From the NCBI GenBank assembly GCA_001805965.1, contig MHHG01000072.1, positions 429-64,428 on the forward strand: a DNA stretch of 64,000 nt, given 5' to 3'. A model generated the notes under the pieces. That model was given only the letters and a program-made list of their open reading frames with translations, had not been told where the DNA came from and ran no database searches. Of this stretch, positions 1,861 through 49,227 are shown in pieces (the stretch's first letter is position 1; each line of letters starts with the position of its first letter). Source of the stretch: Omnitrophica WOR_2 bacterium RIFOXYA2_FULL_38_17. Its GTDB lineage: Bacteria > Omnitrophota > Gorgyraeia > Zapsychrales > Zapsychraceae. A program made the translations under genes and the position numbers.

Positions 1861-2931
1861 AAATGTAGGTTCAAGGGTCTAGCGCAACACTTTGAACTGC
1901 TATAATGGCAGGGAAAGGAGTTGCTAATGGCAAAATATCAAAGACTTAAGTGTTTTGAACGAGAAGAAATATCTCGACAAGTTGCATCAGGAAAGAGCCT
2001 CAGGGAAGTAGCTAAAAATCTCCACAGATCTCCAAGCACCATAACCCGAGAGATAAATAAAAGTGTTGTTGATCGTAAATTTTATCGGGCATTTTTTGCA
2101 CAAGGTCGCAGCAACAAAATTCTTCATCAACGGCATAAGAATCGTAAGCTTGATAACAATCGTGCATTGCGCAAAATTGTACTGTTTTATTTAGCCAAGA
2201 AATGGTCCCCAGAACAGATTGCTAAAAGAATAGTTCTCTTGTATCCTAATGATATGGATATGCGAATTTCACACGAAACAATTTATTCTTATGTGTATAT
2301 ATTGCCGCGCGGGGAATTAAAGCGCGAGTTAGCAGCATGTTTAAGGCGTGGTCATGCTAATCGATATAAGAACAAGAAAGATAGACGAGATAGTGGCGCG
2401 ATACAGAATTATTTGAGTATTGAAGAAAGGCCCAAGGAAGTAGCTGATCGTATAGTTCCAGGACATTGGGAAGGTGATTTGATTATAGGTGGGAGTCATG
2501 CTTCAGCTATTGGGACGCTTGTTGAAAGAACAACCAGAATGACATTTTTAGTTAAGCTGGAGAACAGGTATGCGAGGAATGTCAGAAAAGCTTTTGCTAA
2601 GGAATTTCAATATTTGCCAAAAGGGTTGAGAAAAACATTAACATATGATCAAGGCTCTGAAATGGCAGAACATAAGATTTTCACAAAAGAAACAAATATA
2701 TCTGTTTACTTTGCGCATCCCAGTTCCCCATGGGAACGAGGAACAAATGAGAATACGAATGGCTTATTAAGGCAATATTTTCCTAAAGGAACTGATTTTA
2801 CAAAAATATCAAAAGCTCAGCTTAAAGCAGTGCAAGACGAGCTTAATGACCGTCCTCGTAAGGCATTGGAATGGTATACACCACACGAAAGATTTTCAGA
2901 GTTGTTGCGTTAGAAACTTGAATCTACCTTT
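1861..2931 (+). mobile_element. IS30-family insertion sequence (~1.07 kb) with imperfect terminal inverted repeats
   Basis: Left end AAATGTAGGTTCAAGGGTC (1861-1879) matches the reverse complement of 2913-2931 (AAAGGTAGATTCAAGTTTC) at 15 of 19 positions. These flank a single IS30-type transposase ORF. Confidence 0.55.
1921..2913 (+). CDS. IS30-family DDE transposase
   Basis: N-terminal HTH region, then PGHWEGDLIIGG (IS30 signature G-H-W-E-G-D) and a downstream DDE-type core (TYDQGSEM..., NENTNGLLRQY). 330 aa is the typical IS30 transposase size. Confidence 0.85.
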   Translation: MLMAKYQRLKCFEREEISRQVASGKSLREVAKNLHRSPSTITREINKSVVDRKFYRAFFAQGRSNKILHQRHKNRKLDNNRALRKIVLFYLAKKWSPEQIAKRIVLLYPNDMDMRISHETIYSYVYILPRGELKRELAACLRRGHANRYKNKKDRRDSGAIQNYLSIEERPKEVADRIVPGHWEGDLIIGGSHASAIGTLVERTTRMTFLVKLENRYARNVRKAFAKEFQYLPKGLRKTLTYDQGSEMAEHKIFTKETNISVYFAHPSSPWERGTNENTNGLLRQYFPKGTDFTKISKAQLKAVQDELNDRPRKALEWYTPHERFSELLR

Positions 2932-3081: not shown

Positions 3082-4560
3082 ATGAAGCTTAAAAACAATA
3101 TTATTCCTTTTATTCTATTTCTGGGAAGCTTTTTTCTACGCCTTTCTTTAATAAGCAAAGGCCCCTTTAATGTAGATTGTTTAGACCTTGCCACTCAGGC
3201 AGAAAGGTCTCTCTCTGCTGGACAGCTTCAAAACATGTATGGATCAGGGTATCCAATGGTAGTTATTCTTAGCGCCGGTCTTATCTATATATTCAGAATG
3301 ATCAATATTGTAGATCCTGTCAGTGCTGTCAACATGATGAGTGTTGTAACAACTTCAATCTGTGTTATATTTTTTTATAAAATTGCAGAAAGAATAACAA
3401 GTCAAAAAGCTGCAATATTTAGCACTATTCTTTTTTCATTAAATCCAGCATTTTTAGGAAACTCTGTTTTTGGAATAAGTCATGGCCCAGCATTGCTCTT
3501 TTTATCTGTATCTATATATTTTCTGATACTTTTCAAAGAGGACAATAAGTGTCTAAAATATTTATTTATTTCAGCAATATTTTTCGGATTTACTGGAGCT
3601 GCACGACTTCAAGACATGATATTTCTGATCATACCAATAGCTTCATTGATATTGATCCCACTAAAACCTTGTAATATAAAAAGATTTTTGTTATTTTCTC
3701 TCATTGCTGCTGCTTTTTGCGCCTTGTTTTATCTTCCATATATTATAACTGATGCACGTGAAGATTACTTTAGTCAGCTAAGAAGCTATCGTGCAGATTC
3801 TTTGCCTGTTTATAGCCTAGAATTTATTAGATATACGTTCTTAGAGCTTCATGGTTACCTTTGTGAGTTATTGTTGCCTGTTGGATTGTGCATAAGCATA
3901 TGCGGTCTGTTTATTCTAGGGCGAAAAAAGAATTCCTACTCTATGTTTATATATCTATGGTTCTTTGTTTCTTTCTATATTCTAATCATTTTCTCAACAA
4001 CAAGGCCGAGGTTTCTTTTATTGTCGTTAATGCCTTTAAGTATTGCTGCAGGAGAATGTTTGTCTTATTTATTTAATTTTAATCGGGTATTCAAATTTGT
4101 ATCTATCATCATGCTTTGTCTTCTTTTTCGCATGGGGTTCCTGCCTACATACTATCTTCTTAAATTTCGCCATCGGGTTTCAGTTATCATTGAATATTGT
4201 AAATGGCTTAATAAAAATACTGAAAAGAACTCTCTTATTATTACTTGTGATGATAAACCATTTATACGTTATTATGGTTCTAGGGAAAGCTTAGCTAGGC
4301 CAATGAATACTTTTAGTATTAGTATAGAACAATTAGAAATGTTTAAAAAAGGGCTTGATAAAAAGATTGAAGAAGGTTATCCGGTGTATATCACTGATAT
4401 CGGTCTTTACGCCTATGCGCCAAAAGGAGAATTTACCTCTTTCTTTAGGCATAATTATAGAATTGTTCCTGTGGGAAAAAGTCTTTATGAAGATTGGCAC
4501 CAAGGGGCATCAGAAGATCAACTTTTCTACAATAATCTTTATAAAGTGACAAAGAATTAA
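3082..4560 (+). CDS. polytopic membrane protein, GT-C-fold glycosyltransferase-like (PMT/ArnT/GT39-like), paralog A
   Basis: ~370 aa of multiple predicted TM helices with a short first extracytoplasmic loop (FNVDCLDL), then a ~120-aa soluble C-terminal domain. That topology is typical of lipid-linked-sugar GT-C transferases. 492 aa, same length as the downstream paralog. Confidence 0.45.
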   Translation: MKLKNNIIPFILFLGSFFLRLSLISKGPFNVDCLDLATQAERSLSAGQLQNMYGSGYPMVVILSAGLIYIFRMINIVDPVSAVNMMSVVTTSICVIFFYKIAERITSQKAAIFSTILFSLNPAFLGNSVFGISHGPALLFLSVSIYFLILFKEDNKCLKYLFISAIFFGFTGAARLQDMIFLIIPIASLILIPLKPCNIKRFLLFSLIAAAFCALFYLPYIITDAREDYFSQLRSYRADSLPVYSLEFIRYTFLELHGYLCELLLPVGLCISICGLFILGRKKNSYSMFIYLWFFVSFYILIIFSTTRPRFLLLSLMPLSIAAGECLSYLFNFNRVFKFVSIIMLCLLFRMGFLPTYYLLKFRHRVSVIIEYCKWLNKNTEKNSLIITCDDKPFIRYYGSRESLARPMNTFSISIEQLEMFKKGLDKKIEEGYPVYITDIGLYAYAPKGEFTSFFRHNYRIVPVGKSLYEDWHQGASEDQLFYNNLYKVTKN

Positions 4561-4839: not shown

Positions 4840-6318
4840 ATGAGATACAAGCACATCATTATTCCATGTATTTTATTGTTGGGCAGCTTTATCCTCCGCC
4901 TTTTATTAATTAGCAAAGGGCCGTTTAGTATAGATTGCTTCGATCTTGCTCTTAAAGCTGAAAAAACTTATTCCTCTGGGCAACTTCAATATATGTTTGG
5001 CCCAGGATATCCTTTCGCTATCATTCTCGGGGCGATGTTTATTTGGCTGTTTAATGCATTTAATATTTCGTCTCCTATTTTTGCTGTGAATATGATGAGT
5101 GTTGTTACGGGTTCTTTAGCAGTTTTCTTTTTCTATAGAATTTCTGAAAGTATTACAGATCAGAAATCAGCAATATTTGGCACTGTATTATTTTCATTAA
5201 ACCCAATTGTATTAGGATATTCCGTATATGGGACCAGTAATGCACCAACCTTGCTTTGGTTATGTGTATCGGTTTATTTTTTGATAATTAGCAGGGAGAA
5301 TAAAGATAGTCTGAAAAATTTATTGCTCTCTGCTGTCTTTTTTGGTCTGCTAGGAGGGACACGCCTGCAAGATATGATCTTTCTATCTATACCGATCGCT
5401 TCCTTATTGTTTATTTCTAAAAAAGCATATCGAATACGAAGAATTTTTGTATTTTTTCTCACAGCTGTTTCTGTAAGTATTTTGTTCTATCTTCCATTTG
5501 TTTTGACAGATATGAGGATTGAATATTTAAGCCAGTTAACCAGATTTCGTGCTCTCAACGTACCTACTTATAGCTGGGATTTTACGAAAGAATCCTTCTT
5601 TAAAATTCATATTTACCTTCTTAACGCATTATTGCCAATAGGATTAATAACTAGCTTATATGGACTATTTATTCTGGTGCGCAACAAGAACCCATTCACT
5701 CTGTTTTTGTTACTATGGTTCTTTATTCCTTTCGAAATTACAATAAGGTTTGCTACGACTTATTCGAGATATTTATTAATACCAATTGTGCCTTTAAGTA
5801 TTGCGGCAGGGGCATGTTTGTCTTATTTGTTTAGCAAGGGCCGCATATTTAAAATGGCTTCTATTCTGATCCTTTGCCGTATTTTTTATTTTAGTTTTCT
5901 GCCCATGTATAAGCTCTTGGATTTTCGTCACCATCGTTCAGTTATTATTGAATATTGTAAATGGATCAATGGTATTACTGAGAAAAATGCTTTTATGATT
6001 AGCTGTGATGATAGAAGCTTTATTAATCATTACGGGGATAGGGAAATTATCTCTAGGCCAATGGATAGTTTTCATATCAGCAGGGAACAATTAGAAGAGT
6101 TTAAAACAAGGTTGGATGAAAAATTAGAAGAGGGTTATCCTGTTTATATAACTGCTATCGGGCTTTATGATTATTCACCGAATGGAGAATTTACTTCTTT
6201 CATGGAGCTTCACTATAGGATCAAATATGCGGGAAAAGGTCTTTATGAGGATTGGCACAGTGGAGCAGAAGACAGGAGAATTTTTTATAATTCTCTTTAT
6301 AAAGTGACAAAGAAATAA
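4840..6318 (+). CDS. polytopic membrane protein, GT-C-fold glycosyltransferase-like, paralog B (tandem duplicate of 3082..4560)
   Basis: Collinear with paralog A over the full 492 aa (MRYKHIIIPCILLLGSFILRLLLISKGPFSIDCFDLA... vs MKLKNNIIPFILFLGSFFLRLSLISKGPFNVDCLDLA...; C-termini ...YNSLYKVTKK vs ...YNNLYKVTKN). About 40 bp of upstream leader (TTGAAANNTTTTATTANNTATGA) is also duplicated. Confidence 0.45.
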   Translation: MRYKHIIIPCILLLGSFILRLLLISKGPFSIDCFDLALKAEKTYSSGQLQYMFGPGYPFAIILGAMFIWLFNAFNISSPIFAVNMMSVVTGSLAVFFFYRISESITDQKSAIFGTVLFSLNPIVLGYSVYGTSNAPTLLWLCVSVYFLIISRENKDSLKNLLLSAVFFGLLGGTRLQDMIFLSIPIASLLFISKKAYRIRRIFVFFLTAVSVSILFYLPFVLTDMRIEYLSQLTRFRALNVPTYSWDFTKESFFKIHIYLLNALLPIGLITSLYGLFILVRNKNPFTLFLLLWFFIPFEITIRFATTYSRYLLIPIVPLSIAAGACLSYLFSKGRIFKMASILILCRIFYFSFLPMYKLLDFRHHRSVIIEYCKWINGITEKNAFMISCDDRSFINHYGDREIISRPMDSFHISREQLEEFKTRLDEKLEEGYPVYITAIGLYDYSPNGEFTSFMELHYRIKYAGKGLYEDWHSGAEDRRIFYNSLYKVTKK

Positions 6319-6477: not shown

Positions 6478-9400
6478 ATGTTATTTAGGTACTATTTAAC
6501 TAAAAATAAGACCTTTTCTGGCTATGTAAATAAGTCCATCTGTTTGCTCGTATCTTTTATCTTTTTTACTGCAACTGTCTGTCCCGCGCAGGTGTTTGCT
6601 CAAGCTGTCTTAACGTTGCCGGCTCCCGGAACCATGGTTCCAACCTCTCCGGTTCATAACCCCGCAATGATCCTTGGGATGACCATTAATATGGATAATC
6701 CGTTTCAATTTGATTTTCTTGTGGATTCGGGAGATGAGAATCTTGAGGATGATGCCTTTCGAAAAGAAACAGGGAAGCTTATCAAATACTTTTTAACGGC
6801 ATTGACCGTGCCCGAAGAGGAAATGTGGGTTAATTTATCGCCTTATGAGAAGGACCGCATTATTGCAGATGGCCTTGGGGGAACCGAAATGGGTCGGGAT
6901 ATGCTCGCTCAGGACTATCTTTTAAAGCAGCTCTCTGCTTCATTGATGTACCCTGAAAATGATCTTGGCGCTGAATTCTGGGAAGACGTTTATGAGAAGA
7001 TGGGTGATGAATATGGGACAAAGGATATTCCCGTTGATACGTTCAATAAGATCTGGATCGTTCCAGAAAGGGCTGAGGTTTATGTCAACGGCGAGAGTGT
7101 TTATATTGTCGACAGCCATCTTAAGGTCATGCTTGATGAGGATTATCTTGCCTTAGAAGCTAATAAGAACACTATTGGGCATGGGCTTGGAGATATTAAG
7201 GAGGAAGACCTAAAGCAGCATTCAAAAGTATCGACCGATGCCATCCGCAAGATATTGATCCCGGCAATTGAAAAAGAGGTCAACGAAGGGCAAACATTTG
7301 CATCGTTGCGGCAAATATATAATTCACTGATTCTCGCGGCATGGTTCAAACAGAACCTCAAGAGCAGTATTTTAGGGCAGATCTATGTTGACCGCAGCAA
7401 ACTAAACGGCGTTGATATCGATGACAAAGATGCCAAGATAAGGATATACGAGCAATATTTGAGAGCTTTTAAAAAAGGCGTTTTTGACCTTGTCAAGGAT
7501 GAGTATGATTCGAGCACTCAGACGGTTATTTCCAGGAAGTATTTTTCCGGAGGGGAAAATTTTGCAAATATTGCGCAGGTTGTCCAGAATACAGGTTCTG
7601 ATAGTTCTATGTTGTCCTTCATGCGCAAGATCGTTGGCAGAACGATCAGGTCCGTAACAACTATAGTCAAAAGAGCCAGTCCCAAAAGATTGCCTGATGG
7701 GGAAGAACAAGAGAGCGAAGAACTTCTGGGACAATTGAATGAAATATTACAGAAAGCAGTTAAGGATAGGGCTGATCCTGGTGACTTTGAAAAAAAGCAG
7801 GAGGATCTCCAGGAGTATCAGCCGCCTCAGGCGCCGGAAGTTTCTTTTGAAGAGATCCCTTTACCGGAGGGTATACATACTTTTGACCTCATCACGTTCT
7901 TGCAGGCACAGAAACGTCTGAAGAGTTTATCTGCTGAGGATCTGGGTGCCCTTATGGTCTCTATGGGGATTCTTGATGAGGGCCAAACCTTGACGCGCGA
8001 TGACATAGACCAGCAATACGATATTATTTATAAGCATTTAGCTAAAGAAGGATACTCTGAAGAACTAGTCAGTCTGATCAAAGGTGAGGATGACCCGGAT
8101 GTTGCCTTGGATAGAACTGTCTCGTATCAAAGCGGAAGTTCGAAAATGCAGTCGATCATTGAAGCGGTCGCAAACAGCGTTGACGCCCTGGGAGGTTCCA
8201 TCGGCCAATTCGGAATGGGTGTCAAACAGATTTTAGCATGGCTGGAAGATGGGGAGCGTTTGGAGGTCGTATCTAAAAAGATAGATGATGTTCCCTATCG
8301 TTTGATCATAAGCAAGCAGGCGGGGAAGTTTAACATTGCAATAGATGCTATAAGCAGCGATGATTTTACCAGGGCGCTTGGAGGGGTTAAGTCTGAGAAA
8401 GGCACAGTCATCAATGTCGTCAAGAAAAGGGATGTTCCCACAGAAGGCGACGGAATTACATTGGAGCGTCTTGAGAAAATGGTACATAAGAGGTTTGCCT
8501 TTGTGAAATGGCTGAACCTTTGGACTCGAGGGGGTAATGCCGCTCTTAAGTTCGTAAACGGATGGGAGAGAAGAAGGGTCTTAGCTGGTTTGCAGAATTT
8601 GACGCATGAAAATATTGAGGAATCCGGAGCAGGCCGCGGTGAGAAAATGATCATTGTTTCGCTTGAGTCCCGTGCATTGAGGATCATGGATACAGGGGTG
8701 GGTATGGATTTTCAGGTTTTATCACGCATGTTCCTTCCGGTAGACGGTGGTGACAAAGAGAATAAGTCGCTGGATTCAGAAGAAGATATCAACGCGGAAA
8801 TCGAAAGAACAAGCATGGTCCATGATTGGCAAGGCCCGGTGACATCTGTTGTTTTTGCCAGAAATGGCGAGATGGTCATGGAAGTCCCTCTAAGTGAAGA
8901 GATCAGCGGTTCTATTCTAAAGGGTCAGTTGATGGTTGATCTTGGTAGATTGATACGTGTTTCTCCATCCCGTGACAAGATAGTCCTTCAGCGGAATCAG
9001 GATGAGGAGCCGTTAAAAAGAGGTTTTGTACATCTTGCGCAAGAGGTTATTCAAGGTAATATCTCTGATCAGGAGAAGATCCAGATCATCAACACGCTGA
9101 TAGGTGGTTTGGAAGGGATCGCTCCGGGAAATAAATCAGTTTCCGACATAATTGACGGGGTTAAGATCGCGCTGAAGAAAGAGACGAAGGCTTTTGTTAC
9201 TAAACTCAAGAGTAAAGGCATAATTCTTTTGCCGCTTCGCGGAGGCTATGATAATTTTCGTATTCCTGAAGGTAGAACGGTTGCTTTCCTTAATGAGAAC
9301 CTTTTCGATTGGAGAGGATCTGAATTGAAACAGCTCAAAGAGAATATGGGGGCTAAGGTTCTGCCCCTGGTCCTTGAGGGGAAAGACCCGGATACGGGGA

Positions 9401-12400
9401 TAGTGATACGTAATATTATTCTTGCTGCACCATATAAACAAAGCATTTGGAGTGGGTATCAAGGGAGAGATCTTCAGGAATTTGTTAAGATCGTTTCTCA
9501 GCAGGAATTGCCGGTCATAAAAGGTGACGGCTATGTTGTAGTTCCATCGCAGGTCAGCGAGATGATCGCCACGCTCTCGCAAGATAGCGATAGGATGATA
9601 GAGATCCTGGAGTTATTGAAAATTTTAACTGAAGAGGATACGGCCAACAGTTATGAATTTGAGATCAAGAAAACGGAAGCCTTTGCCGCCTTTGGAGCTG
9701 ATGCCGCTTCTGAAGGTACAGAAGGTCGCCAAACAAAATGGGGGAAAGAAATAGAATTCTTGACTTGGTTTAAAGAGGATGAGCCGACAGCTGAAATTAT
9801 ATCGACGCCATTCGGCCCTCAAAAGACCGAAAAAACGGTTACAGACACTATGCGTGCTTTCAGAGCGGAAAAAGTTGATTTTGATCGAATTTTTCGCGGG
9901 CAAGATATCTTTGCATCAAAACAGGATTTTGTGACAATGAAGAGCGCAAAAGTGGAGTTTTCTCAAGTCTCCCAAGTTGTTTTTACGAATATTTTTGTGA
10001 GGGATCAAGAAAAGCCCAGGATCGGTGAATATTTGGATTCATTGGGTAAAAGTGTAAGGAACCAGGAAGGGGCAAAATTTAGTTTATCAAATAAAGGCAC
10101 TGAAGATAAGGCAATGCTTAGCTTATCAAGCAAGATCGCTATTGAAGCATTAAGGAAATATCCTTTAGCAGAAATTGAAGGTATCAGCGAGTTTATGTTC
10201 GGTAATGATAAATATGTTGTCCGAAAGTATGACAGCGTGAATGGACCCCTACATATTTTGATAGAAAAGGACGGGAAGGATATTAAAAAATTCTGGGCGC
10301 TGGCTTTGCCTTTGGATGTTGAATCATGTCTGATAGATAAAGGAAGAGTGATCTTCAAGGAATCCGAAGGAAACAGGGAGGTCTATGTGGATCTTTTTGA
10401 TCCGGAAGGGGGCTTCCTGGTGAGCTTGAATGTTGAACCAGAAAAGAAGAAAGAGTGGTTAGTGAAACTGGAAAGCAGCTATGCTCAATTGCTCGAGCTT
10501 GTTCCTGATGATGTCATCGAAGGAAATCATTCAGAGTTCAAAGATATTTTCACACGTCTCAATGCGCTCATAAAAGAAAGGGCTGTTTATATTATAGAGG
10601 GTGGTGTAACGCCAGGCCAACAGGTCGCTGCCATTGATGCACTGGTTGATGAGGTGTCCAATGATCTTATTCGGATCGGCGCTACTGTAAAGGAAATGTG
10701 GGAAAATTTCGGGGATGAGAATATATTGCCCCTAAAAGCTCATGAGAGGGGAAGTTTCTTCACGCAGTTCATCAAGGTTCTTGTGCAGGCCGCGACGCTG
10801 GGCCAGTTGGGAGAAAAAGAGGATCTTGAGCAGATGGTTCGGATTATGGGACACGGATTTGTAGTTAAAAGCTCCGCTGATATTGAATCCGCTAAGGCTA
10901 TCGACAGGTTGGTTCAGGCGCTCAGGAAAAAGAATATGAAGGACTTCCCGGAATTATCTAAGATCGTGACGACGCTTCAGCTGACCTTGCGTAAAAGGGA
11001 TGCCGGGGCTGCGGGCCATTTGATAGATAAGATCAATATGATCCTCAATAGTGAGGAGTCGGGAAAATATCTGGAATTGATCTATAAAGAGTTTCAGAGT
11101 GCGGAGTGGATTAAAATAAATAGTGAGATAAGCGCGGGAAAATTTCAGGATCTTGATCGACTGGGGCGGTTGCTGATATTTCTGTCAAGCCGTTCGGACC
11201 TTGTTGCGGAAGATATGAGAAGTGAAGAAGATGATATGAATTGGGCAGTTGTTCCCGAACCTATGGGATTGGAGCAGCTTGATGTGTGGAGCTCATCGAA
11301 AAGCGGAGTCAGGACGGTCGATGAAGTTGTCCAAAAGCAGTCACAGATAAGGGCTTTGGACAATGAGGCTGTTGAGCGAGTTCGCCAGAATATACGATCG
11401 AAGGTCGAAGGATTAAGAGAGTCCGGTGGATATGCGGCTGAATTGATGCAGAATTTTCTGGATGCGATGGTACTGCTGAGGCAGGGCAAGACCGAACAAA
11501 AAGGAAAGCTCCAGGTAAAGTTCTATTATGATAAGGAAAGAGATGAATTTGTTGAAGAGATCAATGACAATGGTCCGGGAGCGCCTGTTGGAAAAGAGCT
11601 GGCGCTTCTTATCAGGAAATCGAACAAGTATGAATTGAACAAGGATCAGCAGGGCCTTGAAGGTCAGTTGGCGGGATTCTTTGGAACGGGTAAATTTACC
11701 ATGTATGCCGGCGCTGATAAAGTTGAGATAATTTCCCGGGGTGAAGAGAATGTCTATGTGTTCGTTCTTAAGGTTGACCGCAAGAACGGAAAGGTCTTTT
11801 TGGAAAAAGTAGGCCAGCGCCAGAGGCGTGAAGGGGAAGAAACAGGCGTGATGATCCGGAGGATCAAGGAAGCTGTATCTATTATTCCATCACTTGAGCA
11901 GATGTTTGCCGAATCTGCCTGGAAAATAAATGCGGGGTTTGCGGTAACGGATAAGGACAGCCTTGATATGGAGATCAATCATGCGATCCATCCGGTTGAA
12001 GTGGCAGGGCGCAAGGCGCTTTATCAGGGAGCATTTTATGCGCCCAATTTATCGACATCCGAAGAACATGGTGAGGAGCGTATAGATCATGGCATATTCA
12101 GGATATGGGAGCATAATGATCCCGAAGTTCCTTCACAGATTGTTGATAAGAAAGGCCTGCGCGTTGAGGATATCGCCCTTAAAGAAAAATTCCTCGAACT
12201 GGTCCCGCAGAGAATGCGTGATATGTTGGATAAAATGCATATAGTTATACAGATACCTCTAGCTCTTTATGAAAGCCGCAATGGATTTGCCCAGGAGGAT
12301 GAATATCTGCCCTTTATTCAAAGGCAGGTCGCTGTTGGGGTGTACCGGGCGCTGGTTAGCAAGTTTCTCTCGGATGAAAGCTTTACTATGGACAGGATCA

Positions 12401-13482
12401 TATCGAGCGATTTTGAAACGGGAATGACATACAATATGGCTTTTAACAGGCAGGCAAATGATCTTTATGTCGGAGAACGTCATTTATTTGATATTGTTAA
12501 AGACCTTAATTCTGAGCTGTCTGATCCAAGGCTGGGGGCAGTTACTAACGGGGAATTGGATGTTCTTAAAGGATGGTTTGATGGGGAGGGAACTGATCTC
12601 GAGAAGGGTTCAATAAAACAATTTTTATCTTTATTGGAGGTTGATTATCTGAATATGGAAAGCATTACTGAACGGGCGAGTATTGTAATGCGGAGAATTA
12701 AGGCGCTCAAGGATGTCGCGCCGCAATTAGCGGAGAATCTCGCTGGCAATACGGGGCGTTCCGTTGAAGATGCGGATAAGCTTAAGGACCGCTATTCTAA
12801 CGAGAGAAAAGCTCAGGCAGCTAGAAGTAAGGTGATTTCTGAAAACTCTCCTTCCTATTGGAGGGAGGCCCCGGTGACTGAAGAAGAAAGAGACCTCTTG
12901 AGGATCGGTGAGGAATTTTCAGCGATATTCGGGATCGAACAGGTTTGGTTAGCCAAAAGCGATGCGCCTTTCAGCGGTTTGTTCTTCGGGAGCGGAATGA
13001 TGCTGAATAAAAGCATTGCGGGGAAAATAGCATCTGAAGGTGGATTTTCTGAAAAGGTCGAAGTGATAGCGCATGAATTAGGGCATTTATTGCAGGCTGC
13101 AAAGCGTTCTGCCGGCAGGGTCGAAATGGTTGCTACCGAACAGCATGGTTTTAATGATTGGACCCATGATGATGAGTTCTCCGAAATGATGAAATGGGTC
13201 TCGTTCTTTATTCTATCAAAACAGTCTCCCGCAGCTAATCAAGCTGATCGGGGTAATACAGATACTACTGTAGAACAAGTAGAATCAGCCCCTGGTGGTA
13301 TCGATTTTAATACGCAGATGTTGAACCTTGAAAATACCGGTAAGCAGTTTCAGTACGATGTTCCGCAATTGTCACCTGAGCAAATGGAATATCTCTCTAT
13401 TGATGGATTGGTCCCGGTTATCATAAATATTTCTCCGGTTACAAACTTGCCGCTGCTTTTGGGATATAATATTGAGGAATAA
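6478..13482 (+). CDS. giant secreted multidomain protein (2334 aa): signal peptide, conserved N-module, two HSP90/sacsin-like GHKL segments, HExxH zincin motif, conserved C-module
   Basis: Single uninterrupted ORF. N-terminal hydrophobic segment ...LLVSFIFFTATVCPAQVFAQA is signal-peptide-like. At ~11440-11830, ELMQNFLDA (N box), EINDNGPGA (G1 box DxGxG), GFFGTGKFTMY (G2 box) and KVEIISRGEENVYVF sit in canonical HSP90/GHKL order and spacing. Degenerate copy at ~8150-8350 (IIEAVANSVDA..IGQFGMGVKQ). HELGH at 13072-13086. N- and C-terminal modules are shared with the 911-aa ORF at 46492..49227. Confidence 0.85.
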   Translation: MLFRYYLTKNKTFSGYVNKSICLLVSFIFFTATVCPAQVFAQAVLTLPAPGTMVPTSPVHNPAMILGMTINMDNPFQFDFLVDSGDENLEDDAFRKETGKLIKYFLTALTVPEEEMWVNLSPYEKDRIIADGLGGTEMGRDMLAQDYLLKQLSASLMYPENDLGAEFWEDVYEKMGDEYGTKDIPVDTFNKIWIVPERAEVYVNGESVYIVDSHLKVMLDEDYLALEANKNTIGHGLGDIKEEDLKQHSKVSTDAIRKILIPAIEKEVNEGQTFASLRQIYNSLILAAWFKQNLKSSILGQIYVDRSKLNGVDIDDKDAKIRIYEQYLRAFKKGVFDLVKDEYDSSTQTVISRKYFSGGENFANIAQVVQNTGSDSSMLSFMRKIVGRTIRSVTTIVKRASPKRLPDGEEQESEELLGQLNEILQKAVKDRADPGDFEKKQEDLQEYQPPQAPEVSFEEIPLPEGIHTFDLITFLQAQKRLKSLSAEDLGALMVSMGILDEGQTLTRDDIDQQYDIIYKHLAKEGYSEELVSLIKGEDDPDVALDRTVSYQSGSSKMQSIIEAVANSVDALGGSIGQFGMGVKQILAWLEDGERLEVVSKKIDDVPYRLIISKQAGKFNIAIDAISSDDFTRALGGVKSEKGTVINVVKKRDVPTEGDGITLERLEKMVHKRFAFVKWLNLWTRGGNAALKFVNGWERRRVLAGLQNLTHENIEESGAGRGEKMIIVSLESRALRIMDTGVGMDFQVLSRMFLPVDGGDKENKSLDSEEDINAEIERTSMVHDWQGPVTSVVFARNGEMVMEVPLSEEISGSILKGQLMVDLGRLIRVSPSRDKIVLQRNQDEEPLKRGFVHLAQEVIQGNISDQEKIQIINTLIGGLEGIAPGNKSVSDIIDGVKIALKKETKAFVTKLKSKGIILLPLRGGYDNFRIPEGRTVAFLNENLFDWRGSELKQLKENMGAKVLPLVLEGKDPDTGIVIRNIILAAPYKQSIWSGYQGRDLQEFVKIVSQQELPVIKGDGYVVVPSQVSEMIATLSQDSDRMIEILELLKILTEEDTANSYEFEIKKTEAFAAFGADAASEGTEGRQTKWGKEIEFLTWFKEDEPTAEIISTPFGPQKTEKTVTDTMRAFRAEKVDFDRIFRGQDIFASKQDFVTMKSAKVEFSQVSQVVFTNIFVRDQEKPRIGEYLDSLGKSVRNQEGAKFSLSNKGTEDKAMLSLSSKIAIEALRKYPLAEIEGISEFMFGNDKYVVRKYDSVNGPLHILIEKDGKDIKKFWALALPLDVESCLIDKGRVIFKESEGNREVYVDLFDPEGGFLVSLNVEPEKKKEWLVKLESSYAQLLELVPDDVIEGNHSEFKDIFTRLNALIKERAVYIIEGGVTPGQQVAAIDALVDEVSNDLIRIGATVKEMWENFGDENILPLKAHERGSFFTQFIKVLVQAATLGQLGEKEDLEQMVRIMGHGFVVKSSADIESAKAIDRLVQALRKKNMKDFPELSKIVTTLQLTLRKRDAGAAGHLIDKINMILNSEESGKYLELIYKEFQSAEWIKINSEISAGKFQDLDRLGRLLIFLSSRSDLVAEDMRSEEDDMNWAVVPEPMGLEQLDVWSSSKSGVRTVDEVVQKQSQIRALDNEAVERVRQNIRSKVEGLRESGGYAAELMQNFLDAMVLLRQGKTEQKGKLQVKFYYDKERDEFVEEINDNGPGAPVGKELALLIRKSNKYELNKDQQGLEGQLAGFFGTGKFTMYAGADKVEIISRGEENVYVFVLKVDRKNGKVFLEKVGQRQRREGEETGVMIRRIKEAVSIIPSLEQMFAESAWKINAGFAVTDKDSLDMEINHAIHPVEVAGRKALYQGAFYAPNLSTSEEHGEERIDHGIFRIWEHNDPEVPSQIVDKKGLRVEDIALKEKFLELVPQRMRDMLDKMHIVIQIPLALYESRNGFAQEDEYLPFIQRQVAVGVYRALVSKFLSDESFTMDRIISSDFETGMTYNMAFNRQANDLYVGERHLFDIVKDLNSELSDPRLGAVTNGELDVLKGWFDGEGTDLEKGSIKQFLSLLEVDYLNMESITERASIVMRRIKALKDVAPQLAENLAGNTGRSVEDADKLKDRYSNERKAQAARSKVISENSPSYWREAPVTEEERDLLRIGEEFSAIFGIEQVWLAKSDAPFSGLFFGSGMMLNKSIAGKIASEGGFSEKVEVIAHELGHLLQAAKRSAGRVEMVATEQHGFNDWTHDDEFSEMMKWVSFFILSKQSPAANQADRGNTDTTVEQVESAPGGIDFNTQMLNLENTGKQFQYDVPQLSPEQMEYLSIDGLVPVIINISPVTNLPLLLGYNIEE

Positions 13483-19426: not shown

Positions 19427-20131
19427 ATGGAAATAAAATCTATAAATTCTAAAAAAGCATTTACCCTGATAGAGCTTCTTATCGTTGTTGGGATCTTAGC
19501 TGTTGTTATTACGGGCATGATGCAGATATTTACATATATGCCACGGTTGTCAGAATCGGCCTCTAACTCAACAAAGGCAATGAATGAGATCAATAGTAAA
19601 CTGGAGGAAATGTATAGTACCTCTTTCAAGAATATAATATCAACTTACGCATGTGAATGTTTTGACTATATAGATAATGATATGGATGGGGCGATAGATT
19701 ATGACCACAATCCAAGCCATCCAAGCGATATGCAATGTTCCCAAATGTTAGATAACTCTGAGAGCAGTGATGCAGCCCCGGCCTCGTTTGATACTTCTCC
19801 GTGCAGTTTTGAATTAGAAGCATTTACGACACCGGCTGGCGAAAAAAGGGGCTGGGCGGTTATTTATTTGTCAAAGTCCCCATATTTTGATGCAACAAAA
19901 ACTGATGAAGAAAATGATAATTATAAAGATGGGGATGGCTTTATAAATGATGATGATGTGAACAATGATCTACTTGATGTCACAATTGTAGCTACTTGGA
20001 TTGATTCTTATGGGCGTACGATTGGAGAAGATATAAATTTAAATGGATATTTGGATAACAGTGAGGATAGCGATGGAGATGGCAGGCTGTCATCAACGGC
20101 CACAATTACAGCAAAGATTTCGAGGAGATAG
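19427..20131 (+). CDS. type IV prepilin-like (pseudo)pilin with acidic DxDxDG calcium-loop-like motifs
   Basis: Class III signal: KKAFTLIELLIVVGILAVVITG (prepilin cleavage/methylation region with conserved E+5). Mature part carries DNDMDGAID, DGDGFINDDD and DSDGDGRLS, which are EF-hand/DxDxDG-like loops. Confidence 0.75.
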   Translation: MEIKSINSKKAFTLIELLIVVGILAVVITGMMQIFTYMPRLSESASNSTKAMNEINSKLEEMYSTSFKNIISTYACECFDYIDNDMDGAIDYDHNPSHPSDMQCSQMLDNSESSDAAPASFDTSPCSFELEAFTTPAGEKRGWAVIYLSKSPYFDATKTDEENDNYKDGDGFINDDDVNNDLLDVTIVATWIDSYGRTIGEDINLNGYLDNSEDSDGDGRLSSTATITAKISRR

Positions 20132-33595: not shown

Positions 33596-35479
33596 TCAAA
33601 TTGCATTTGTTCTTGGTAAATATATCGTAAAGATAGTCCCTTTGCCTACTTCACTTTCAACAGTTATTTCCCCATTGTAACTTTTAATGATTCCCTGCAC
33701 CATTGATAATCCCAGGCCAGTACCTTTCCCGACTTCTTTAGTAGTGAAGAATGGTTCGAAGACCCTGTCAAGGGTATCCTTATCTATTCCATGTCCATTA
33801 TCTTCGATGCTTATTTTGACATAGTCACCCTCTTTTAGGTCCTTATGTCTTGAGGCAAGACCCACATCAATAGAGATCCTTGATAATGATATTTCAATAA
33901 ATCCATTTGGCTTATTCATTGAGTGTACGCTGTTTGTGCATATATTTAAGATAACATGTTGTATTTGATTTGAGTCAGCCAATACGTAGCCACAATTATT
34001 ATCAATGTTTTCTCTTATTTCTATTGCGCCTTTTACCGAGGCTTTAAACATGGACAATACCTCCTTAATAACAGGGGATATGGCAATATTTTGGGCCTCC
34101 TCTTTGTAGGATCTGCTATAAATAAGCATCTGCTGGGCTAATTTTTGTGCGCTAATAACACCTTTTATTACTTTTTGCAGATCGCTATGGGTGCGACTGT
34201 TTTGATCTGTATCATCGAGCGCCATTTCAGTATAGCCACGAATTGTGGCAAGGATGTTGTTAAAATTGTGTGCAATGCCGCTAGCCATAGTACCAATGGA
34301 CTCCATCTTTTGTGATTGTAAAAGTTGTCTTTGCAAGTTTTCTTTTTCGTCTGAGGCCTGTTTAGTTTTTGTTATATCTCGATTAACGCCTCTGTAACCT
34401 ACCATCTTACCTTCAGGATCCAGGATAGGTACTCCGGTAGTGACTATAATGATGTTGTTTCCATCTTTTCTTAATCCATAGTTAATGAAGTCTTTGATTT
34501 CTTTCTTGTTATGGAATGCTGTAAAAACCTTGGTCATAAATTCTTCTTTTTCATTAGGGGGATAGAAGTCGTAGAAGAATTTTCCTAAAATATACTCAGA
34601 TTTATACCCTAAAATATTCTCAACGGTATGATTAGAATAAACATATCTTCCTTGAGCATCTACTTCCCAGATCCAGTCGCCACTACTTTCGGCAACATCT
34701 CTAAAGCGCTGTTGTTCTTTCTCCAATATATTTATAGAAACCGTGGTATTTCTCAGGTCAGCAGTCATTTTGTTGATCGAGTCGGCTAATTCTCCGATTT
34801 CACTTTTATCATTAGATTCTACAATGTGGGATAATTTTCCTGCGCTGATCATTTTTACACCATGGACTAATGCGTTGATTGGTTGAGTGATTGATAAAGA
34901 TAAAAGATATGAGACCATAAGGCTTAGCATGATAAATACTGTAACTAAGAAAATGGATGATCTTGTTCTATTCATAACTTCTTTGTCAATTCTTTGAAGA
35001 GACATCCCAAGCTGAACGGCTCCAACTATTTCATTTTCATATATTACGGGTGTGAGAATTTCAAGCACAGGGATTCTTTTTTTGTCTCTTAGTAAAGAGG
35101 AGAGATATGTTTCTTGTGGAAGGGATTTAAGCGTTTGATTATCTTCAAAGGTCTCAATAATAAAGATTCTTGTTATTAATTTGGTGTTTAAATCCCCATA
35201 AATGCTCACGTATCCAATATCAGGATAAGTTTCTAATTTGTTAGCGGAATTATCAAGTAATAAAATATCTTCAATCAATACACCTTCTGCCACTTTTTTT
35301 GCAAATTCTGTTGCTAGAAGAAGCCCTCTGTTTCTAAAAGATTCAAGCATGTTCTGCCTTATATTGTTTAGCAGGAAGAAAGATGTTGCCCCCATAGAGA
35401 TAACTATTAGAGCAGCGATAATTACGAATATCCTAGTTTGTAGCCTGAGGCCTTTTATTTTAAATGAGGTATTTTTCAA
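33596..35479 (-). CDS. sensor histidine kinase (2 TM, periplasmic domain, HAMP, PAS, HisKA, HATPase_c)
   Basis: Two TM helices flank a ~150-aa periplasmic region. HAMP ([15 protein letters not shown]), PAS, H-box [12 protein letters not shown] box NLVxNSVHS-like ([12 protein letters not shown]), G1 DNGHGI, G2 GTGLGLS. Confidence 0.85.
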
Positions 35480-35517
35480 ATTTGTGCCTTATTGCCTTTT
35501 TTTATAAAAAATTATTT

Positions 35518-36828: not shown

Positions 36829-37134
36829 TGTGGCCTTTCTATTAAAAAGGAAAGAAATCTTATTTTCAGTTAAATTTATTTCTCAAAATATCTTAAATAA
36901 TATACCATGTTAATATTGTATGGATAAGTGTTTTTATTCAAAATATGATTTGAATTGTATATGAAATAAAGCAGATATGTTCTTGAATTTTGGGTTAGAA
37001 TCATCAGGATATCGTAACTATTATCATTGATATCTATAGAATAATAAAAGAATGTGTGGTAATATTTTAAATATTAGGAATTTAGTCATTAGACGAAAAT
37101 TGAGTGATTTTACAGGAGAATAGTATATTTTCTT

Positions 37135-39204: not shown

Positions 39205-39233
39205 ATTGGACTTAATATAAAAGGGGGTGTTTT

Positions 39234-39611
39234 ATGGCGAGAATTCTTGTAATTGACGATCATGATGAGTTTCAGAGCATGCTATGTGAGCTGCTCAGAA
39301 AAGCTGGTCATGAAGTAACAGGTGCATCTGATGGGAACGAGGGAATATTGTTGGGTAAAAAATTGAATTTGGATTTAGTCATTACTGATATCATTATGCC
39401 CAATAAAGAGGGAATGGAAACAATTATAGAATTTAAGAAGTTGCTTCCGAATTTGCCAATTATTGCTATCTCCGGAGGAGGCAGAGGGGATCCTCAGAAT
39501 TATTTAAAGGGGACAAGGCTGTTGTCTAATGTGAAGTACACTTTTGCAAAACCATTAGAGACAGATAAATTGTTGCAGGCAATAGATGATTTGGTCGGAA
39601 AAGAATTATGA
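39234..39611 (+). CDS. stand-alone response-regulator receiver (paralog of 33175..33552)
   Basis: MARILVIDDHDEF...LDLVITDIIMPNKEGMETI...AISGGGRGDPQNYLKGTRLLSNVKYTFAKP. About 55-60% identical to the other REC, including the unusual ISGGGRG(N/D) loop. Confidence 0.85.
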   Translation: MARILVIDDHDEFQSMLCELLRKAGHEVTGASDGNEGILLGKKLNLDLVITDIIMPNKEGMETIIEFKKLLPNLPIIAISGGGRGDPQNYLKGTRLLSNVKYTFAKPLETDKLLQAIDDLVGKEL

Positions 39612-39786
39612 CCTTATTTTTCAGGTAGTGTTTTCTGCTTTTGCATTGCAATAAAATGAATGTTGACTTATATTATTTGTTAATCATTCAGCTTTTGATA
39701 AAAGTTATTAATCCTATTCGTTTTTATTTTAATATTCTGGCAAAGAATTTTTGTATAAAATAATAATGGCTACTTGAGATTAAGTT

Positions 39787-46491: not shown

Positions 46492-49227
46492 ATGTTTAGC
46501 AAAGCTATAAAAAAAGTTATAGTATCGTTAATGGTTTTTGCATTTTTAGGGGCGCAAGTTTTTCCACTTTGTCCCGTAGATGCTAATGCCCAGAGTGCGC
46601 TTGTTTTGCCTTCAGCCGGAGCTATGATCCAAACAAGCCCTCCATTCAGTCCCGCAGTGATCCAAGGCATTACTTTATATCCAGAAAATCCTCTAAAGTT
46701 TGATTTTATAATTGATAAAGGTGATACCTATTTTGAATCAGAAGAATTTCAGGATGAAGCTAATAGGCTTATCAATTATTTTATGGCGTCACTGACTGTT
46801 CCTGAAGATGAGATGTGGGTCAATCTTTCACCATATGAGAAAGATAGGATTATTGCCGATGGTTTAATTCAAACGGAGCTAGGACGTGATATGCTTGCGC
46901 AGGATTATTTATTGAAACAGATAACAGCTTCTTTTATGCATCCTGATGGAAGTGTCGGGGCTGAATTCTGGAAGAAAATATATGAAAAGGCACAAGCCCT
47001 TTATGGGACGACAGAAATGCCTGTTAATACCTTTAATAAAGTTTGGATCGTTCCTGAAGAGGCGGTTGTTTATGTGCATGGAACAAGCGCTTTTGTTGTT
47101 GAGAGCCACCTGAAAGTCATGTTAGAAGGTGATTATATGGCTCTTGACAATAATTCGTTCAATAAAAAAATAGGAACGGACCAAATAGAAAAGAGAGATG
47201 TCGAAAAGATCAGTGATGTTTCATCTGCTATTGTCCGGGATGTAATCCTTCCAGAGCTTGAAAAAGAAGTCAATGAAGGAGAGAACTTTGCTACTCTTCG
47301 CCAGATGTTCAATTCGATGATACTTGCAACATGGTATAAGCAGAATCTGAAAAATAGCTTGTTTGGAGAAGCATATATTAACAGGAATAAAGTTTCTGGA
47401 ATTGACCTTGCAGAGCGGGGCGTTAAGGAAAAGATATATGACCAGTATGTAGAAGCTTTTAAAAAGGGAGTTTATGATTTCGTAAGGGAAGAATATGATG
47501 ATGCTACTCAAGAGATAATTCCTAGAAAGTATTTTTCAGGTGGGATTGTCGGACAGAAATCTGTAAAAGATACTTCTATGTTGGGAGACAATGACAAAAT
47601 AGGATCATTGTTGGATGGTGAAAATAAAGAGAAAGTTACAGTTGAGATAAAAGTTGGCGATAGAGATGTAAGTGATGCTACGAGAGCCTCTGATGCAGTT
47701 GTTTCAGACAATAGAGAGGAGTATCCACTTAGAGTTGAGGGGGATACCGGAGATTATACTTATTCTTTATCATTTGTTAATCCTAAAAGAAGAAGACCGA
47801 CAATGGTTCCAAATGCGATAGAGGTAAACAGAAAGCTTACCAGAAAAGAATTGGATGAATATAATGAACTTTCTTCCGAAGAAAAAGCAAAAAGAAGAGT
47901 TGATAGCGGCATAGAGAAGGTTGATATTGATTTGAGAAGAATCATTCATGAGAAATTTGAGGGATTTTTAACCAGGACTGATTATGTTCAGAATGTTCTT
48001 GGAGATATTGACTCTGACGTATATTTTCAAGATATAAAACATATAGACATAGAGTTTATTAGATTATCAGAGAGAGTAGTTTTCAATGTAAAAATATACA
48101 CTAAAGATGGAGGATCTGAGCCTAGTGAGGAGTTTATAGCTAAGGTAGTAAGGAAAAGAAATCAGCTTGAAGCGGGCGAGAACGAATTTGAATTTGAGCA
48201 GATTGCAGATCAGCAGGTGGAAGCTTTTGAAAAACTTAAAAGTAGAGGAGTAAGATTTGTCCCAAGGTATGCAAAAACTGTTGATGGTGTTTATTATGAG
48301 GAGGTTATTAGGGGAAAATCAATTTTGCAATATGCTGCAAGTGAAGGGTTGACAACTGAAGAGATTGAAGAGATTGCATATACGTGGCTGACTATTTGGA
48401 GGCATGTTAAGGATTCTTCGGATCCTACTTCGTCTGATCCCAAAATGCTTGACCTGAATCCTGGCAATATCATGATAAGGGAAGGGGAAGACCTTCTTGA
48501 CAGTCATGTTGTTATTGATATATTTAGCACCTCAAAGGGTAGTTATAATCCCAAGAGCCTGGTTAGAGATTTGTTGAGGTTTTATGTCTACGGCGGTAAT
48601 CCTGCAGTGACAGTCAAATCAAAAAAGTCAAATGATATTGAGCCTGTACTCGAGGGTATTTATAGAGGGCTTGATTATGACAGGGCGCAAACGATAAAGT
48701 TCCTTACGAGCATAACTCATTCGCCTGTTGTGCCTTTTAGGCAGTGGAGCGGGAAGGGGCAGGACCCAAGGATCAGTGATCTTGAGTTTTATGCAGTGAT
48801 TGAACAGTTTTTAAAAAGGGAATTTGGTTATCAAGAAACTACAACTGCTCTTGAAAGATATAACAATATAGAAAATTTTAAAGGGAATCAAAGAAAGGAG
48901 CGCGCTATTGCAAATATGAGAGCAAGAGCAGAGAATGCGACAGGGGAAAATTCAAGAAATTCATCAGATAGTATTGCGGCTCGCGGAACAGAATCTCCTA
49001 CAGCAAACCCTGGTGGTATCGACCTTGATGCTGATAATATGAACTTAAAAGTTGAAGGGAATATGTTCAATTTTCAATTGCCTGATGATTTTGAGGGCAT
49101 TGATATTAATGCAGAAGGATTTTTGCCTGTCATAATAAATATCTCACCAATTATCGATATGCCGCTTCTTCTTGGAGTTGCAGAAGATGAGGAATACCAG
49201 CCGCAGTTAAGTTATTCATTAAATTGA
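46492..49227 (+). CDS. secreted modular protein (911 aa): conserved N-module, atypical protein-kinase-like core, conserved C-module; paralog of 6478..13482
   Basis: Signal peptide ...FLGAQVFPLCPVDANA. Residues ~40-390 are ~65% identical to the giant protein N-module (e.g. MWVNLSPYEKDRIIADGL, GRDMLAQDYLLKQ, KVWIVPEEA, HLKVMLEGDY, LEKEVNEGENFATLRQ). Core has IAKVVRK (beta3 Lys-like), LDLNPGNIMI (catalytic-loop-like HxDLxPxN) and VIDIFS (DFG-like). C-terminus PGGIDLD...LPVIINISPIIDMPLLLG is shared with the giant protein. Confidence 0.8.
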   Translation: MFSKAIKKVIVSLMVFAFLGAQVFPLCPVDANAQSALVLPSAGAMIQTSPPFSPAVIQGITLYPENPLKFDFIIDKGDTYFESEEFQDEANRLINYFMASLTVPEDEMWVNLSPYEKDRIIADGLIQTELGRDMLAQDYLLKQITASFMHPDGSVGAEFWKKIYEKAQALYGTTEMPVNTFNKVWIVPEEAVVYVHGTSAFVVESHLKVMLEGDYMALDNNSFNKKIGTDQIEKRDVEKISDVSSAIVRDVILPELEKEVNEGENFATLRQMFNSMILATWYKQNLKNSLFGEAYINRNKVSGIDLAERGVKEKIYDQYVEAFKKGVYDFVREEYDDATQEIIPRKYFSGGIVGQKSVKDTSMLGDNDKIGSLLDGENKEKVTVEIKVGDRDVSDATRASDAVVSDNREEYPLRVEGDTGDYTYSLSFVNPKRRRPTMVPNAIEVNRKLTRKELDEYNELSSEEKAKRRVDSGIEKVDIDLRRIIHEKFEGFLTRTDYVQNVLGDIDSDVYFQDIKHIDIEFIRLSERVVFNVKIYTKDGGSEPSEEFIAKVVRKRNQLEAGENEFEFEQIADQQVEAFEKLKSRGVRFVPRYAKTVDGVYYEEVIRGKSILQYAASEGLTTEEIEEIAYTWLTIWRHVKDSSDPTSSDPKMLDLNPGNIMIREGEDLLDSHVVIDIFSTSKGSYNPKSLVRDLLRFYVYGGNPAVTVKSKKSNDIEPVLEGIYRGLDYDRAQTIKFLTSITHSPVVPFRQWSGKGQDPRISDLEFYAVIEQFLKREFGYQETTTALERYNNIENFKGNQRKERAIANMRARAENATGENSRNSSDSIAARGTESPTANPGGIDLDADNMNLKVEGNMFNFQLPDDFEGIDINAEGFLPVIINISPIIDMPLLLGVAEDEEYQPQLSYSLN

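Follow-up and report, generated by a model that had tools for sequence, protein, structure and literature searches.

A large Omnitrophota protein family whose conserved terminal modules enclose exchangeable cargo and may form a handle for sorting or delivery after Sec export

The stretch of DNA analysed here (64,000 nucleotides, hereafter the window) comes from Omnitrophica WOR_2 bacterium RIFOXYA2_FULL_38_17 (contig MHHG01000072.1) and encodes two long proteins, P1 and P2, which share an N-terminal module (N-module) and a C-terminal module (C-module) around unrelated central parts. Judged from their sequences, P1 and P2 are two old paralogues of one very large family that is almost exclusively found in Omnitrophota. 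The members of this family carry the features of an export signal at their N-termini, enclose cargo of very different kinds, and show co-variation between their two conserved ends. We estimate at about one in two the probability that the two modules constitute a bracket, that is, a shared handle by which proteins exported through Sec would enter a common sorting or delivery step. Both genes lie on the forward strand, with the following parts:

6478..13482, forward strand: P1, 2334 amino acids, with signal peptide, N-module, a cargo of 1.9 thousand amino acids (kaa) and C-module, as defined by its open reading frame (ORF), translation and matches to the hidden Markov models (HMMs) of both modules
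6478..6600, forward strand: putative Sec-type signal peptide of P1, residues 1-41, with a basic n-region, a hydrophobic segment at residues 17-35 and predicted cleavage between VFA and QA
6601..7554, forward strand: N-module of P1, residues 42-359, ending in KYFSGG and with WVNLSPYE at 6826-6849, placed by BLASTP against P2 and by the invariant positions of the family alignment
7555..13293, forward strand: variable cargo of P1, with a weak HSP90/GHKL-ATPase-like stretch at about 11431-11841 and HELGH (HExxH) at 13072-13086
13294..13479, forward strand: C-module of P1, GGIDFN...GLVPVIINISPVTNLPLLLG plus the short acidic tail YNIEE, placed by BLASTP, motif scan and C-module HMM match
46492..49227, forward strand: P2, a family member of 911 amino acids (ORF and translation)
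46492..46590, forward strand: putative Sec-type signal peptide of P2, residues 1-33, with predicted cleavage between ANA and QS
46591..47544, forward strand: N-module of P2, residues 34-351; the helix at residues 83-102 (46738-46797) and WVNLSPYE (46816-46839) are the elements that co-vary with the C-module
47545..49011, forward strand: linker and variable cargo of P2, about 490 amino acids, with a DLNPGN motif at 48451-48468
49012..49224, forward strand: C-module of P2, GGIDLDADNMNLKVEG...GFLPVIINISPIIDMPLLLG plus the acidic tail VAEDEEYQPQLSYSLN, placed by BLASTP, motif scan and position check

Two paralogues and the family they belong to

The original prediction, made from the letters of the window, held that two of its proteins have conserved ends in common, and both BLASTP and HMM searches bear this out with corrected numbers. 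The N-terminal segments of P1 and P2 match over 376 amino acids with 197 identities (52%, E 2e-128), the C-terminal segments share 30 of 84 residues (36%, E 7e-11), and BLASTP found nothing significant between the two proteins besides these segments, so that their cores are unrelated. The N-modules had been thought to be about 65% identical; over the segments for which that figure was given (6607-7560 and 46600-47550, both in frame), we measured 176 identities in 317 residues, or 55.5%. The accompanying proposal of an old duplication holds, because nucleotide identity between the N-modules is 61% and only 81 of the 176 identical residues are encoded by the same codon, which places synonymous sites near saturation. 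For the C-module, the common motif was correctly recognized but its proposed starts (13290 and 49005) are 2 nucleotides out of frame: GGID begins at 13294 in P1 and at 49012 in P2, and PLLLG at 13450 and 49162, respectively. The window contains exactly two copies of the modules, as determined by a six-frame motif scan and by HMM searches (N-module E-values of 2e-184 for P1 and 6e-188 for P2; C-module E-values of 3e-25 and 4e-26, with matches ending 5 and 16 residues before the terminus). P2 is also 100% identical to A2Y03_00865 of Omnitrophica WOR_2 bacterium GWF2_38_59 (MHGE01000054.1).

A family of at least two members had been foreseen; the family is real, and its size had been greatly underestimated, since database searches recovered thousands of members. 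The N-module alone matches 1181 database clusters, the best 120 of which are all 49-60% identical to it and, where a source name is given, bear for the most part an Omnitrophota or Omnitrophica label. Full-length P2 retrieves at least 3763 clusters at E<=1e-20 (8000 candidates scored), and the C-module profile retrieves 6245 cluster representatives (50% identity), 3522 of them at E<=1e-10. In species-representative genomes we confirmed at least 584 family copies; our locus analyses use the best 79 loci, each of 20 kb, plus the window. Fifty-seven of the best 79 loci are labelled Omnitrophota or Omnitrophica, including one metagenome-assembled genome (MAG) of Candidatus Aceula lacicola, and the remaining ones bear unconfirmed labels ('uncultured Planctomycetales', generic names and one Bacteroidales). 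Single MAGs contribute 10-11 copies to these 79 loci, and three or four of the genes often stand in tandem. The family is therefore probably among the largest lineage-specific gene families in Omnitrophota. We found no description of either module in the literature on Omnitrophota giant genes, Velamenicoccus, secretion or effectors, and the family with this pair of terminal modules is undescribed to date in the giant-gene literature of the phylum.

The position of the modules is constant. Among the module-bearing ORFs of the 79 loci and the window, 115 contain an N-module, always N-terminal, 88 contain a C-module, always C-terminal, and 73 contain both. Most ORFs with the N-module only run off the end of the stored locus, and several complete ones directly precede an ORF with the C-module only, an arrangement that indicates a split gene; ORFs with the C-module only stand at locus starts or right behind such an N-module ORF, with one exception in locus L036. 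Both modules are present in 110 of the 117 full-length database matches, and the C-module lies at the extreme C-terminus in all of its 150 best matches, in proteins of up to 5808 amino acids. Members are 549-5808 amino acids long (median 1181) and follow one layout: signal peptide, N-module of about 320 amino acids, flexible linker, one or more cargo domains, linker, C-module of about 56-60 amino acids and acidic tail.

The family N-terminus consists of basic residues, a hydrophobic core and a c-region in which position -3 is A, V, S or G in 78% of the sequences, position -1 is A in 79% and position +1 is Q in 78%; the conserved LNLPxPGTMV begins after this c-region. N-termini of this A-x-A|Q type represent Sec-type signal peptides, with cleavage predicted before the Q. 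The N-module carries the motifs WVNLSPYE, DYxLKQ, FNKVWIVP and KYFSGG and has invariant columns that P1 and P2 share; about 45 of its columns are invariant across 57 members, so that the similarity is not one of low-complexity sequence. KYFSGG closes the N-module (91-99% conserved) and GGID(L/F)NP opens the C-module, which makes both boundaries nearly invariant. The C-module consensus, GGIDLNPxxLDLQIKRDGxGxPLP...IxGFxPVIINIxPVxNLPLLLG, is followed by 2-50 mostly acidic residues; in this tail D and E make up 22% and K and R 9%, and the hydrophobic stretch itself includes three Pro residues plus Asn and Asp. Apart from the signal peptide and the PVIINI...LLLG stretch, P1 and P2 contain no hydrophobic segments.

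The expectation that neither module could be given a name was confirmed: the modules of P1 and P2 had no match in profile scans of Pfam, NCBIfam, PADLOC and PHROGs. Sequence and profile searches of the PDB with the N-module, the C-module, the profile of P2 orthologues and both cores found no relative, except for a marginal HSP90/GHKL-like stretch in P1.

Two further observations concern the ends and linkers of the family. First, some long database proteins among P0358-P0478, for example P0468 (1830 amino acids) and P0455 (1529 amino acids), have a C-module and no detectable N-module, and P0468 opens with a different hydrophobic anchor; most matches with the C-module only look like fragments, and a second type of N-terminus may exist. 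Second, a linker motif, SSP[VILMA] ('SSPV'), is present in 76 of 230 members, 11-fold over the expectation from composition. Examples are L006:9905-16084, P0251, P0255, P0258, P0265 and P0278. The motif sits 10-50 amino acids past YFSGG, 0-30 amino acids ahead of GGID and, in members with several domains, where one domain seems to give way to the next; it may serve for processing or as an O-glycosylation sequon. P1 and P2 have none.

Co-variation between the two modules

To relate the two ends to each other, we applied mean-field direct-coupling analysis (DCA) to 233 sequences with paired N- and C-modules (effective number 212). Pairs that join the N-module to the C-module occupy ranks 8, 10, 11 and 19 of all pairs, and the best four of their scores (1.69-1.49) lie above the maxima of 1.10-1.22 obtained in four permutations of the N-C pairing. 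The coupled pairs form two clusters, GGIDLNP against WVNLSPYE/TEMGRDLL and PVIINI against one face of a helix. In the first one, the partners of the L and P of GGIDLNP are the M that precedes WVNLSPYE as well as the M and L of TEMGRDLLAQDY; in the second one, those of the F and I of GFxPVIINI are residues at a spacing of i, i+3, i+4 and i+8 on the first long helix. The same run recovers pairs that fit a modelled beta-hairpin. As for the structures, the N-module is predicted to be mixed alpha/beta, with a confident model that has no solved structural relative. A model of full-length P2 is poor as a whole (overall predicted local distance difference test score, pLDDT, 58.6). It retains the N-module and shows GGIDL...NLKVEG as a pair of strands; these are confident (pLDDT 83-84), in contrast to the linker and cargo next to them.

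These results suggest that the N- and C-modules come together as a single composite unit into which the cargo is inserted, rather than that the C-terminal motif acts alone. This bears on the suggestion in the original prediction that the hydrophobic C-terminal motif is a sorting, anchoring or secretion signal: the known forms that we tested do not apply, given that the tail is acidic and not basic, and the coupling suggests instead that the motif packs on the N-module.

The C-module of one molecule may alternatively dock into the N-module of another. In its fullest form, this alternative describes an envelope coat or scaffold, in which the bracket anchors the proteins to the envelope or joins them head-to-tail, C-module into the next N-module, as an extracellular or periplasmic layer that displays enzymes. 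Intermolecular contact would explain the co-variation equally well; promiscuous docking among different members would call for interface motifs that hardly vary across paralogues, which is what we see; and genomes encode numerous paralogues, frequently as tandem genes. It is also in line with the extracellular coat of giant multi-enzyme proteins with similar domains that has been proposed in the phylum, including Velamenicoccus (PMC10066038; bioRxiv 10.1101/2023.11.21.568195). We nevertheless consider a coat unlikely: co-variation between parts of the same polypeptide is more simply explained as contact within the molecule, scans of P1 and P2 found no known anchor (SLH, constant LysM, lipobox or sortase signal), and cargo that depends on ATP or NAD would be idle on a surface.

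Cargo, its exchange and the proposed delivery step

The cores of the family are mutually unrelated, with a mean column identity of 7% among 57 of them. Pfam domains in these 57 cores include phosphoglycerate kinase (PGK, E 9e-108), enolase, starch synthase, phosphoglucomutase, UDP-glucose pyrophosphorylase and PPDK_N, as well as Glu/Leu and Ala dehydrogenases, RmlD, receiver, HATPase_c, PP2C, NUDIX, methyltransferase, GT2 and HEAT domains. Recorded Pfam matches of further members add DnaJ, thymidylate kinase, transketolase, ROK, phosphoglycerate mutase, protein kinase, Macro, HD, HAD, GNAT, GH130, GT1, LysM, a 3D domain and several peptidases. As classified by these matches, the cargo is extremely diverse and consists mostly of nucleotide-dependent enzymes and signalling domains of cytoplasmic type. 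In P0282 the PGK cargo (residues 404-805) is full length and aligns end-to-end with solved PGKs. Its best match is that of Pyrococcus horikoshii (2cun, E 1e-51), an archaeal enzyme that comes ahead of bacterial PGKs. The cargo of P1 has no Pfam match; its HSP90/GHKL-like stretch is marginal (NCBIfam HSP90 E 1.9e-4, far below the cut-off; PDB HSP90 N-domain E 0.02), and its HELGH was recognized by sequence motif only. The cargo of P2 had no match in the Pfam, NCBIfam and PDB searches and is shared only with the orthologues P0242 (84%) and P0243 (65%).

The idea of swappable cores between conserved ends is supported. In the 233 paired sequences, N-modules have a background identity of 58% and C-modules one of 42%. 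N-module identity is above 70% in 594 pairs, of which 565 show no core similarity. In P0251, P0255, P0258, P0265 and P0278, for instance, N-modules are 91-94% and C-modules 79-93% identical, and the cargo is unrelated (Macro, DUF218, LysM, or no recorded Pfam match). In the pairs that we checked by BLAST, similarity ends about 50-70 residues past YFSGG and restarts shortly before GGID; conversely, proteins with homologous cores may show mere background identity in their N-modules. These alignments support either an exchange of cargo between conserved ends or a homogenization of the ends among paralogues, and the cores would be swappable in both cases.

The handle reading, to which we gave about even odds above, can be set out as a series of steps. 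The protein would be exported through Sec and its signal peptide cleaved. The C-module would then fold back on the N-module: its GGIDLNP hairpin would pack on the WVNLSPYE/TEMGRDLLAQDY region, and its hydrophobic PVIINI strand along a single face of the first long helix, to yield a composite 'bracket' domain from which the cargo emerges as a loop. The constant bracket would be recognized by a single downstream step, in which the protein crosses the outer envelope, becomes attached to it or is passed to a host or prey cell, and the cargo could be freely swapped by recombination between the conserved ends. The likeliest site of action would be a compartment that contains nucleotides outside the cytoplasm of the producer, such as a host or prey cell, which is the most economical choice because most of the cargo needs ATP, NAD or phosphorylated intermediates. 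Such a site would also fit the host-dependent or predatory lifestyle proposed for Omnitrophota (PMC10066038; bioRxiv 10.1101/2023.11.21.568195) and the similar domain repertoire of their giant proteins (bioRxiv 10.64898/2026.06.07.730766).

Several of our results weigh against this scheme. It is important to consider that co-variation cannot separate contact within a molecule from contact between molecules, and that our permutation control does not preserve phylogeny. The PVIINI...LLLG half of the C-module has a pLDDT below 40, and the confidence of the WVNLSPYE loop drops in the full-length P2 model. Eighteen of 110 members are without an obvious hydrophobic N-terminus, some of them as truncated gene calls. 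The clustering of flanking ORFs at the 79 loci revealed no dedicated transporter or partner gene; the neighbours that recur are response regulators, histidine kinases and ABC-F proteins of generic kinds. Finally, cytoplasmic-type cargo would lack ATP and NAD outside the cell unless it is delivered into another cell, a fact that is compatible with a non-exported location too.

This last point leads to a second alternative, namely that the proteins are not exported: the N-terminal segment would be an uncleaved membrane anchor, or a product of miscalled starts, and the bracket would tether or organize ordinary enzymes of the cytoplasm along the inner side of the membrane. The overwhelmingly cytoplasmic type of the cargo speaks for it, as does a 2026 preprint in which many long Omnitrophota proteins are read as membrane-anchored with cytoplasmic domains (bioRxiv 10.64898/2026.06.07.730766). 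We judge it improbable, given that basic residues ahead of the hydrophobic core predict an N-in, C-out orientation that leaves the rest of the protein outside the cytoplasm, that the canonical A-x-A|Q site is conserved in about 79% of the members, and that some of the cargo is clearly extracytoplasmic (LysM, 3D domain and peptidases).

A third alternative takes the invariant Gly-Gly at both cargo boundaries (YFSGG and GGID) as its starting point. Here the modules are pro-domains needed in transit, as an intramolecular chaperone or inhibitor, and the pro-protein or polyprotein is cut at the GG boundaries, or at SSPV in one sub-clade, which frees the cargo enzymes. The enrichment of SSP[VILMA] beside both modules and at domain boundaries agrees with such processing, and C39 or S8 peptidase domains have been suggested to process the giant proteins of Omnitrophota (bioRxiv 10.1101/2023.11.21.568195). 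However, the GG residues lie inside conserved, apparently structured motifs and not in exposed linkers, with GGID modelled in a strand; a pro-domain of 320 amino acids at 58% identity would be unusually large; the flanking clusters of the 79 loci include no linked protease gene; and SSPV is missing from P1 and P2. We regard this alternative as quite unlikely.

Omnitrophota are widespread, uncultured, ultra-small nanobacteria that are thought to be predators or parasites. A bolder form of the handle reading, which we put forward only tentatively and with clearly less confidence than the handle itself, is that the bracket is the address tag of a new, Omnitrophota-specific post-Sec pathway that would place dozens of active metabolic and signalling enzymes onto partner cells or inject them into these cells. 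The bracket would in this form be a self-closing clasp, in which the C-terminal strand docks into the N-domain and any cargo is accepted. Any Omnitrophota genome can be screened with the two HMMs for proteins that are candidates for secretion or for effector function, and phyletic profiling based on the resulting list could help in the search for partner machinery. The family may also connect the giant multi-enzyme proteins with a simpler class that is experimentally tractable, and a clasp that tolerates arbitrary inserts could serve as a scaffold for protein engineering.

Genomic surroundings and comparison with known systems

The gene content of the window is that of an ordinary chromosome (carB, glycerol kinase, lgt, exbB, a pilus/type 2 secretion system (T2SS) ATPase and two-component genes). 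Immediately upstream of P1 lie two PMT_2/TMEM260-like GT-C glycosyltransferases in tandem (3082-4560 and 4840-6318, forward strand). Enzymes of this kind modify exported proteins at the outer face of the membrane; this type of neighbour is not among the flanking-gene clusters that recur at other loci of the family. The DNA upstream of the P1 region also contains a gene for a SEC-C-motif protein and a transposase-like gene (HTH_38 plus rve integrase core) at 541-1803 and 1921-2913 (forward strand). P2 is directly preceded by an ORF of 716 amino acids (44141-46291, forward strand) without a match in Pfam; its N-terminus resembles a signal peptide, and its C-terminal part has a hydrophobic segment at residues 686-704. 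This ORF is syntenic with P2 in all four contigs that bear P2. Downstream of P2 (49361-51754, forward strand), genes for a membrane protein with DUF5684 and for an outer membrane efflux protein (OEP) that resembles TolC are followed by glycerol kinase and glycerol-3-phosphate dehydrogenase-like genes; no membrane-fusion or ABC partner was seen beside the OEP. The window further contains a dense signalling cluster (33596-43917, both strands) of three histidine kinase-like genes, several receiver proteins, FIST and PAS-GGDEF-EAL, as well as a pseudopilin-like protein with an N-terminal methylation motif (19427-20131) and a T2SSE/PilB-type ATPase with MshEN (56670-58370), both on the forward strand. 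Pilus and type 2-like systems have been reported beside giant genes of Omnitrophota.

Conserved ends around variable enzymatic middles recall several toxin and secretion-substrate families, and this architectural likeness is all that favours assigning our proteins to one of them (MARTX, type 1 RTX, type 9 cargo with its C-terminal domain (CTD), TpsA, or sortase and exosortase substrates): at E<=0.1, neither P1 nor P2 is matched by a Pfam or NCBIfam model of any such family. The original prediction had compared the architecture to MARTX toxins or to a delivery scaffold with cargo. The logic of a scaffold with cargo does fit, but a relation to MARTX finds no support. No RTX/MARTX repeat model (Pfam/NCBIfam, E<=0.1) and no peptidase C80, the cysteine protease domain, matches; the conserved ends are single-copy globular modules; and the proteins have a Sec-type signal with an A-x-A site, whereas MARTX toxins use type 1 export, whose substrates have no Sec signal. 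What the family has in common with MARTX and with polymorphic toxins is the combination of conserved trafficking parts with enzymatic modules that are exchanged by recombination, as seen here in near-identical ends with unrelated cargo. In contrast to polymorphic toxins, our family has its variable part in the interior and a conserved module at the C-terminus, and the conserved flanking-gene clusters of the 79 loci include no immunity-like or conserved small downstream gene family. Unlike in both toxin classes, the cargo consists mostly of ordinary metabolic and signalling enzymes and not of nucleases, deaminases or pore formers.

The cargo of type 9 secretion in Bacteroidota offers a parallel in design, one tag for many cargoes, with a Sec signal, arbitrary domains and a C-terminal module of about 60-100 amino acids common to dozens of paralogues. 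P1 and P2 have no Pfam or NCBIfam match to the type 9 CTD (Por_Secre_tail/TIGR04183-type), the C-module profile has no PDB relative, and none of the type 9 machinery (PorK/L/M/N, Sov, PorU/V) is among the annotated ORFs of the 64-kb window. Our family also differs in its obligatory N-module of 320 amino acids, in a C-module that seems paired with that N-module and not a free beta-sandwich, and in the phylum. TpsA proteins of two-partner secretion (TPS) likewise have a Sec signal followed by an N-proximal domain of about 250-300 amino acids that marks very long, variable passengers for a common step at the outer membrane. Here, however, the N-module is predicted to be mixed alpha/beta and not a beta-helix, and a conserved C-terminal module is present in addition; P1 and P2 have no Pfam match to the TPS domain, and a TpsB gene of the Omp85 family is not among the recurrent flanking clusters of the 79 loci. 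Sortase-type signals comprise a short motif, a transmembrane helix and a basic tail. Substrates of sortases, exosortases and rhombosortases (LPXTG, PEP-CTERM, GlyGly-CTERM) were rejected as relatives, with no NCBIfam sorting-signal match and with an acidic tail after a Pro-containing stretch. Membership in a known toxin or secretion-substrate family is effectively excluded by these tests.

Within the phylum, the giant Omnitrophota proteins termed 'Archaeovorins' (bioRxiv 10.1101/2023.11.21.568195, 10.64898/2026.06.07.730766) also have signal peptides and share cargo with our family (HATPase_c, PPDK_N, NUDIX, HAD, methyltransferases, receiver, starch synthase, phosphoglucomutase and HEAT). Our family differs from them in its size (0.55-5.8 kaa), in having one or few cargo domains, mostly without internal transmembrane helices, and in the N/C bracket, which is not described in those papers. 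The mycobacterial PE/PPE proteins resemble it as a lineage-restricted, expanded family in which a conserved N-terminal domain marks very variable proteins for one export route. There is no homology between the two, and PE/PPE export runs through type 7 secretion, with neither Sec signals nor a conserved C-terminal partner module. The testable defining features of the type 9, TpsA, polymorphic toxin and MARTX families are absent here except for the exchange of cargo, and we propose a family of secretion or sorting substrates that is defined by its address modules and has a real chance of marking a new pathway.

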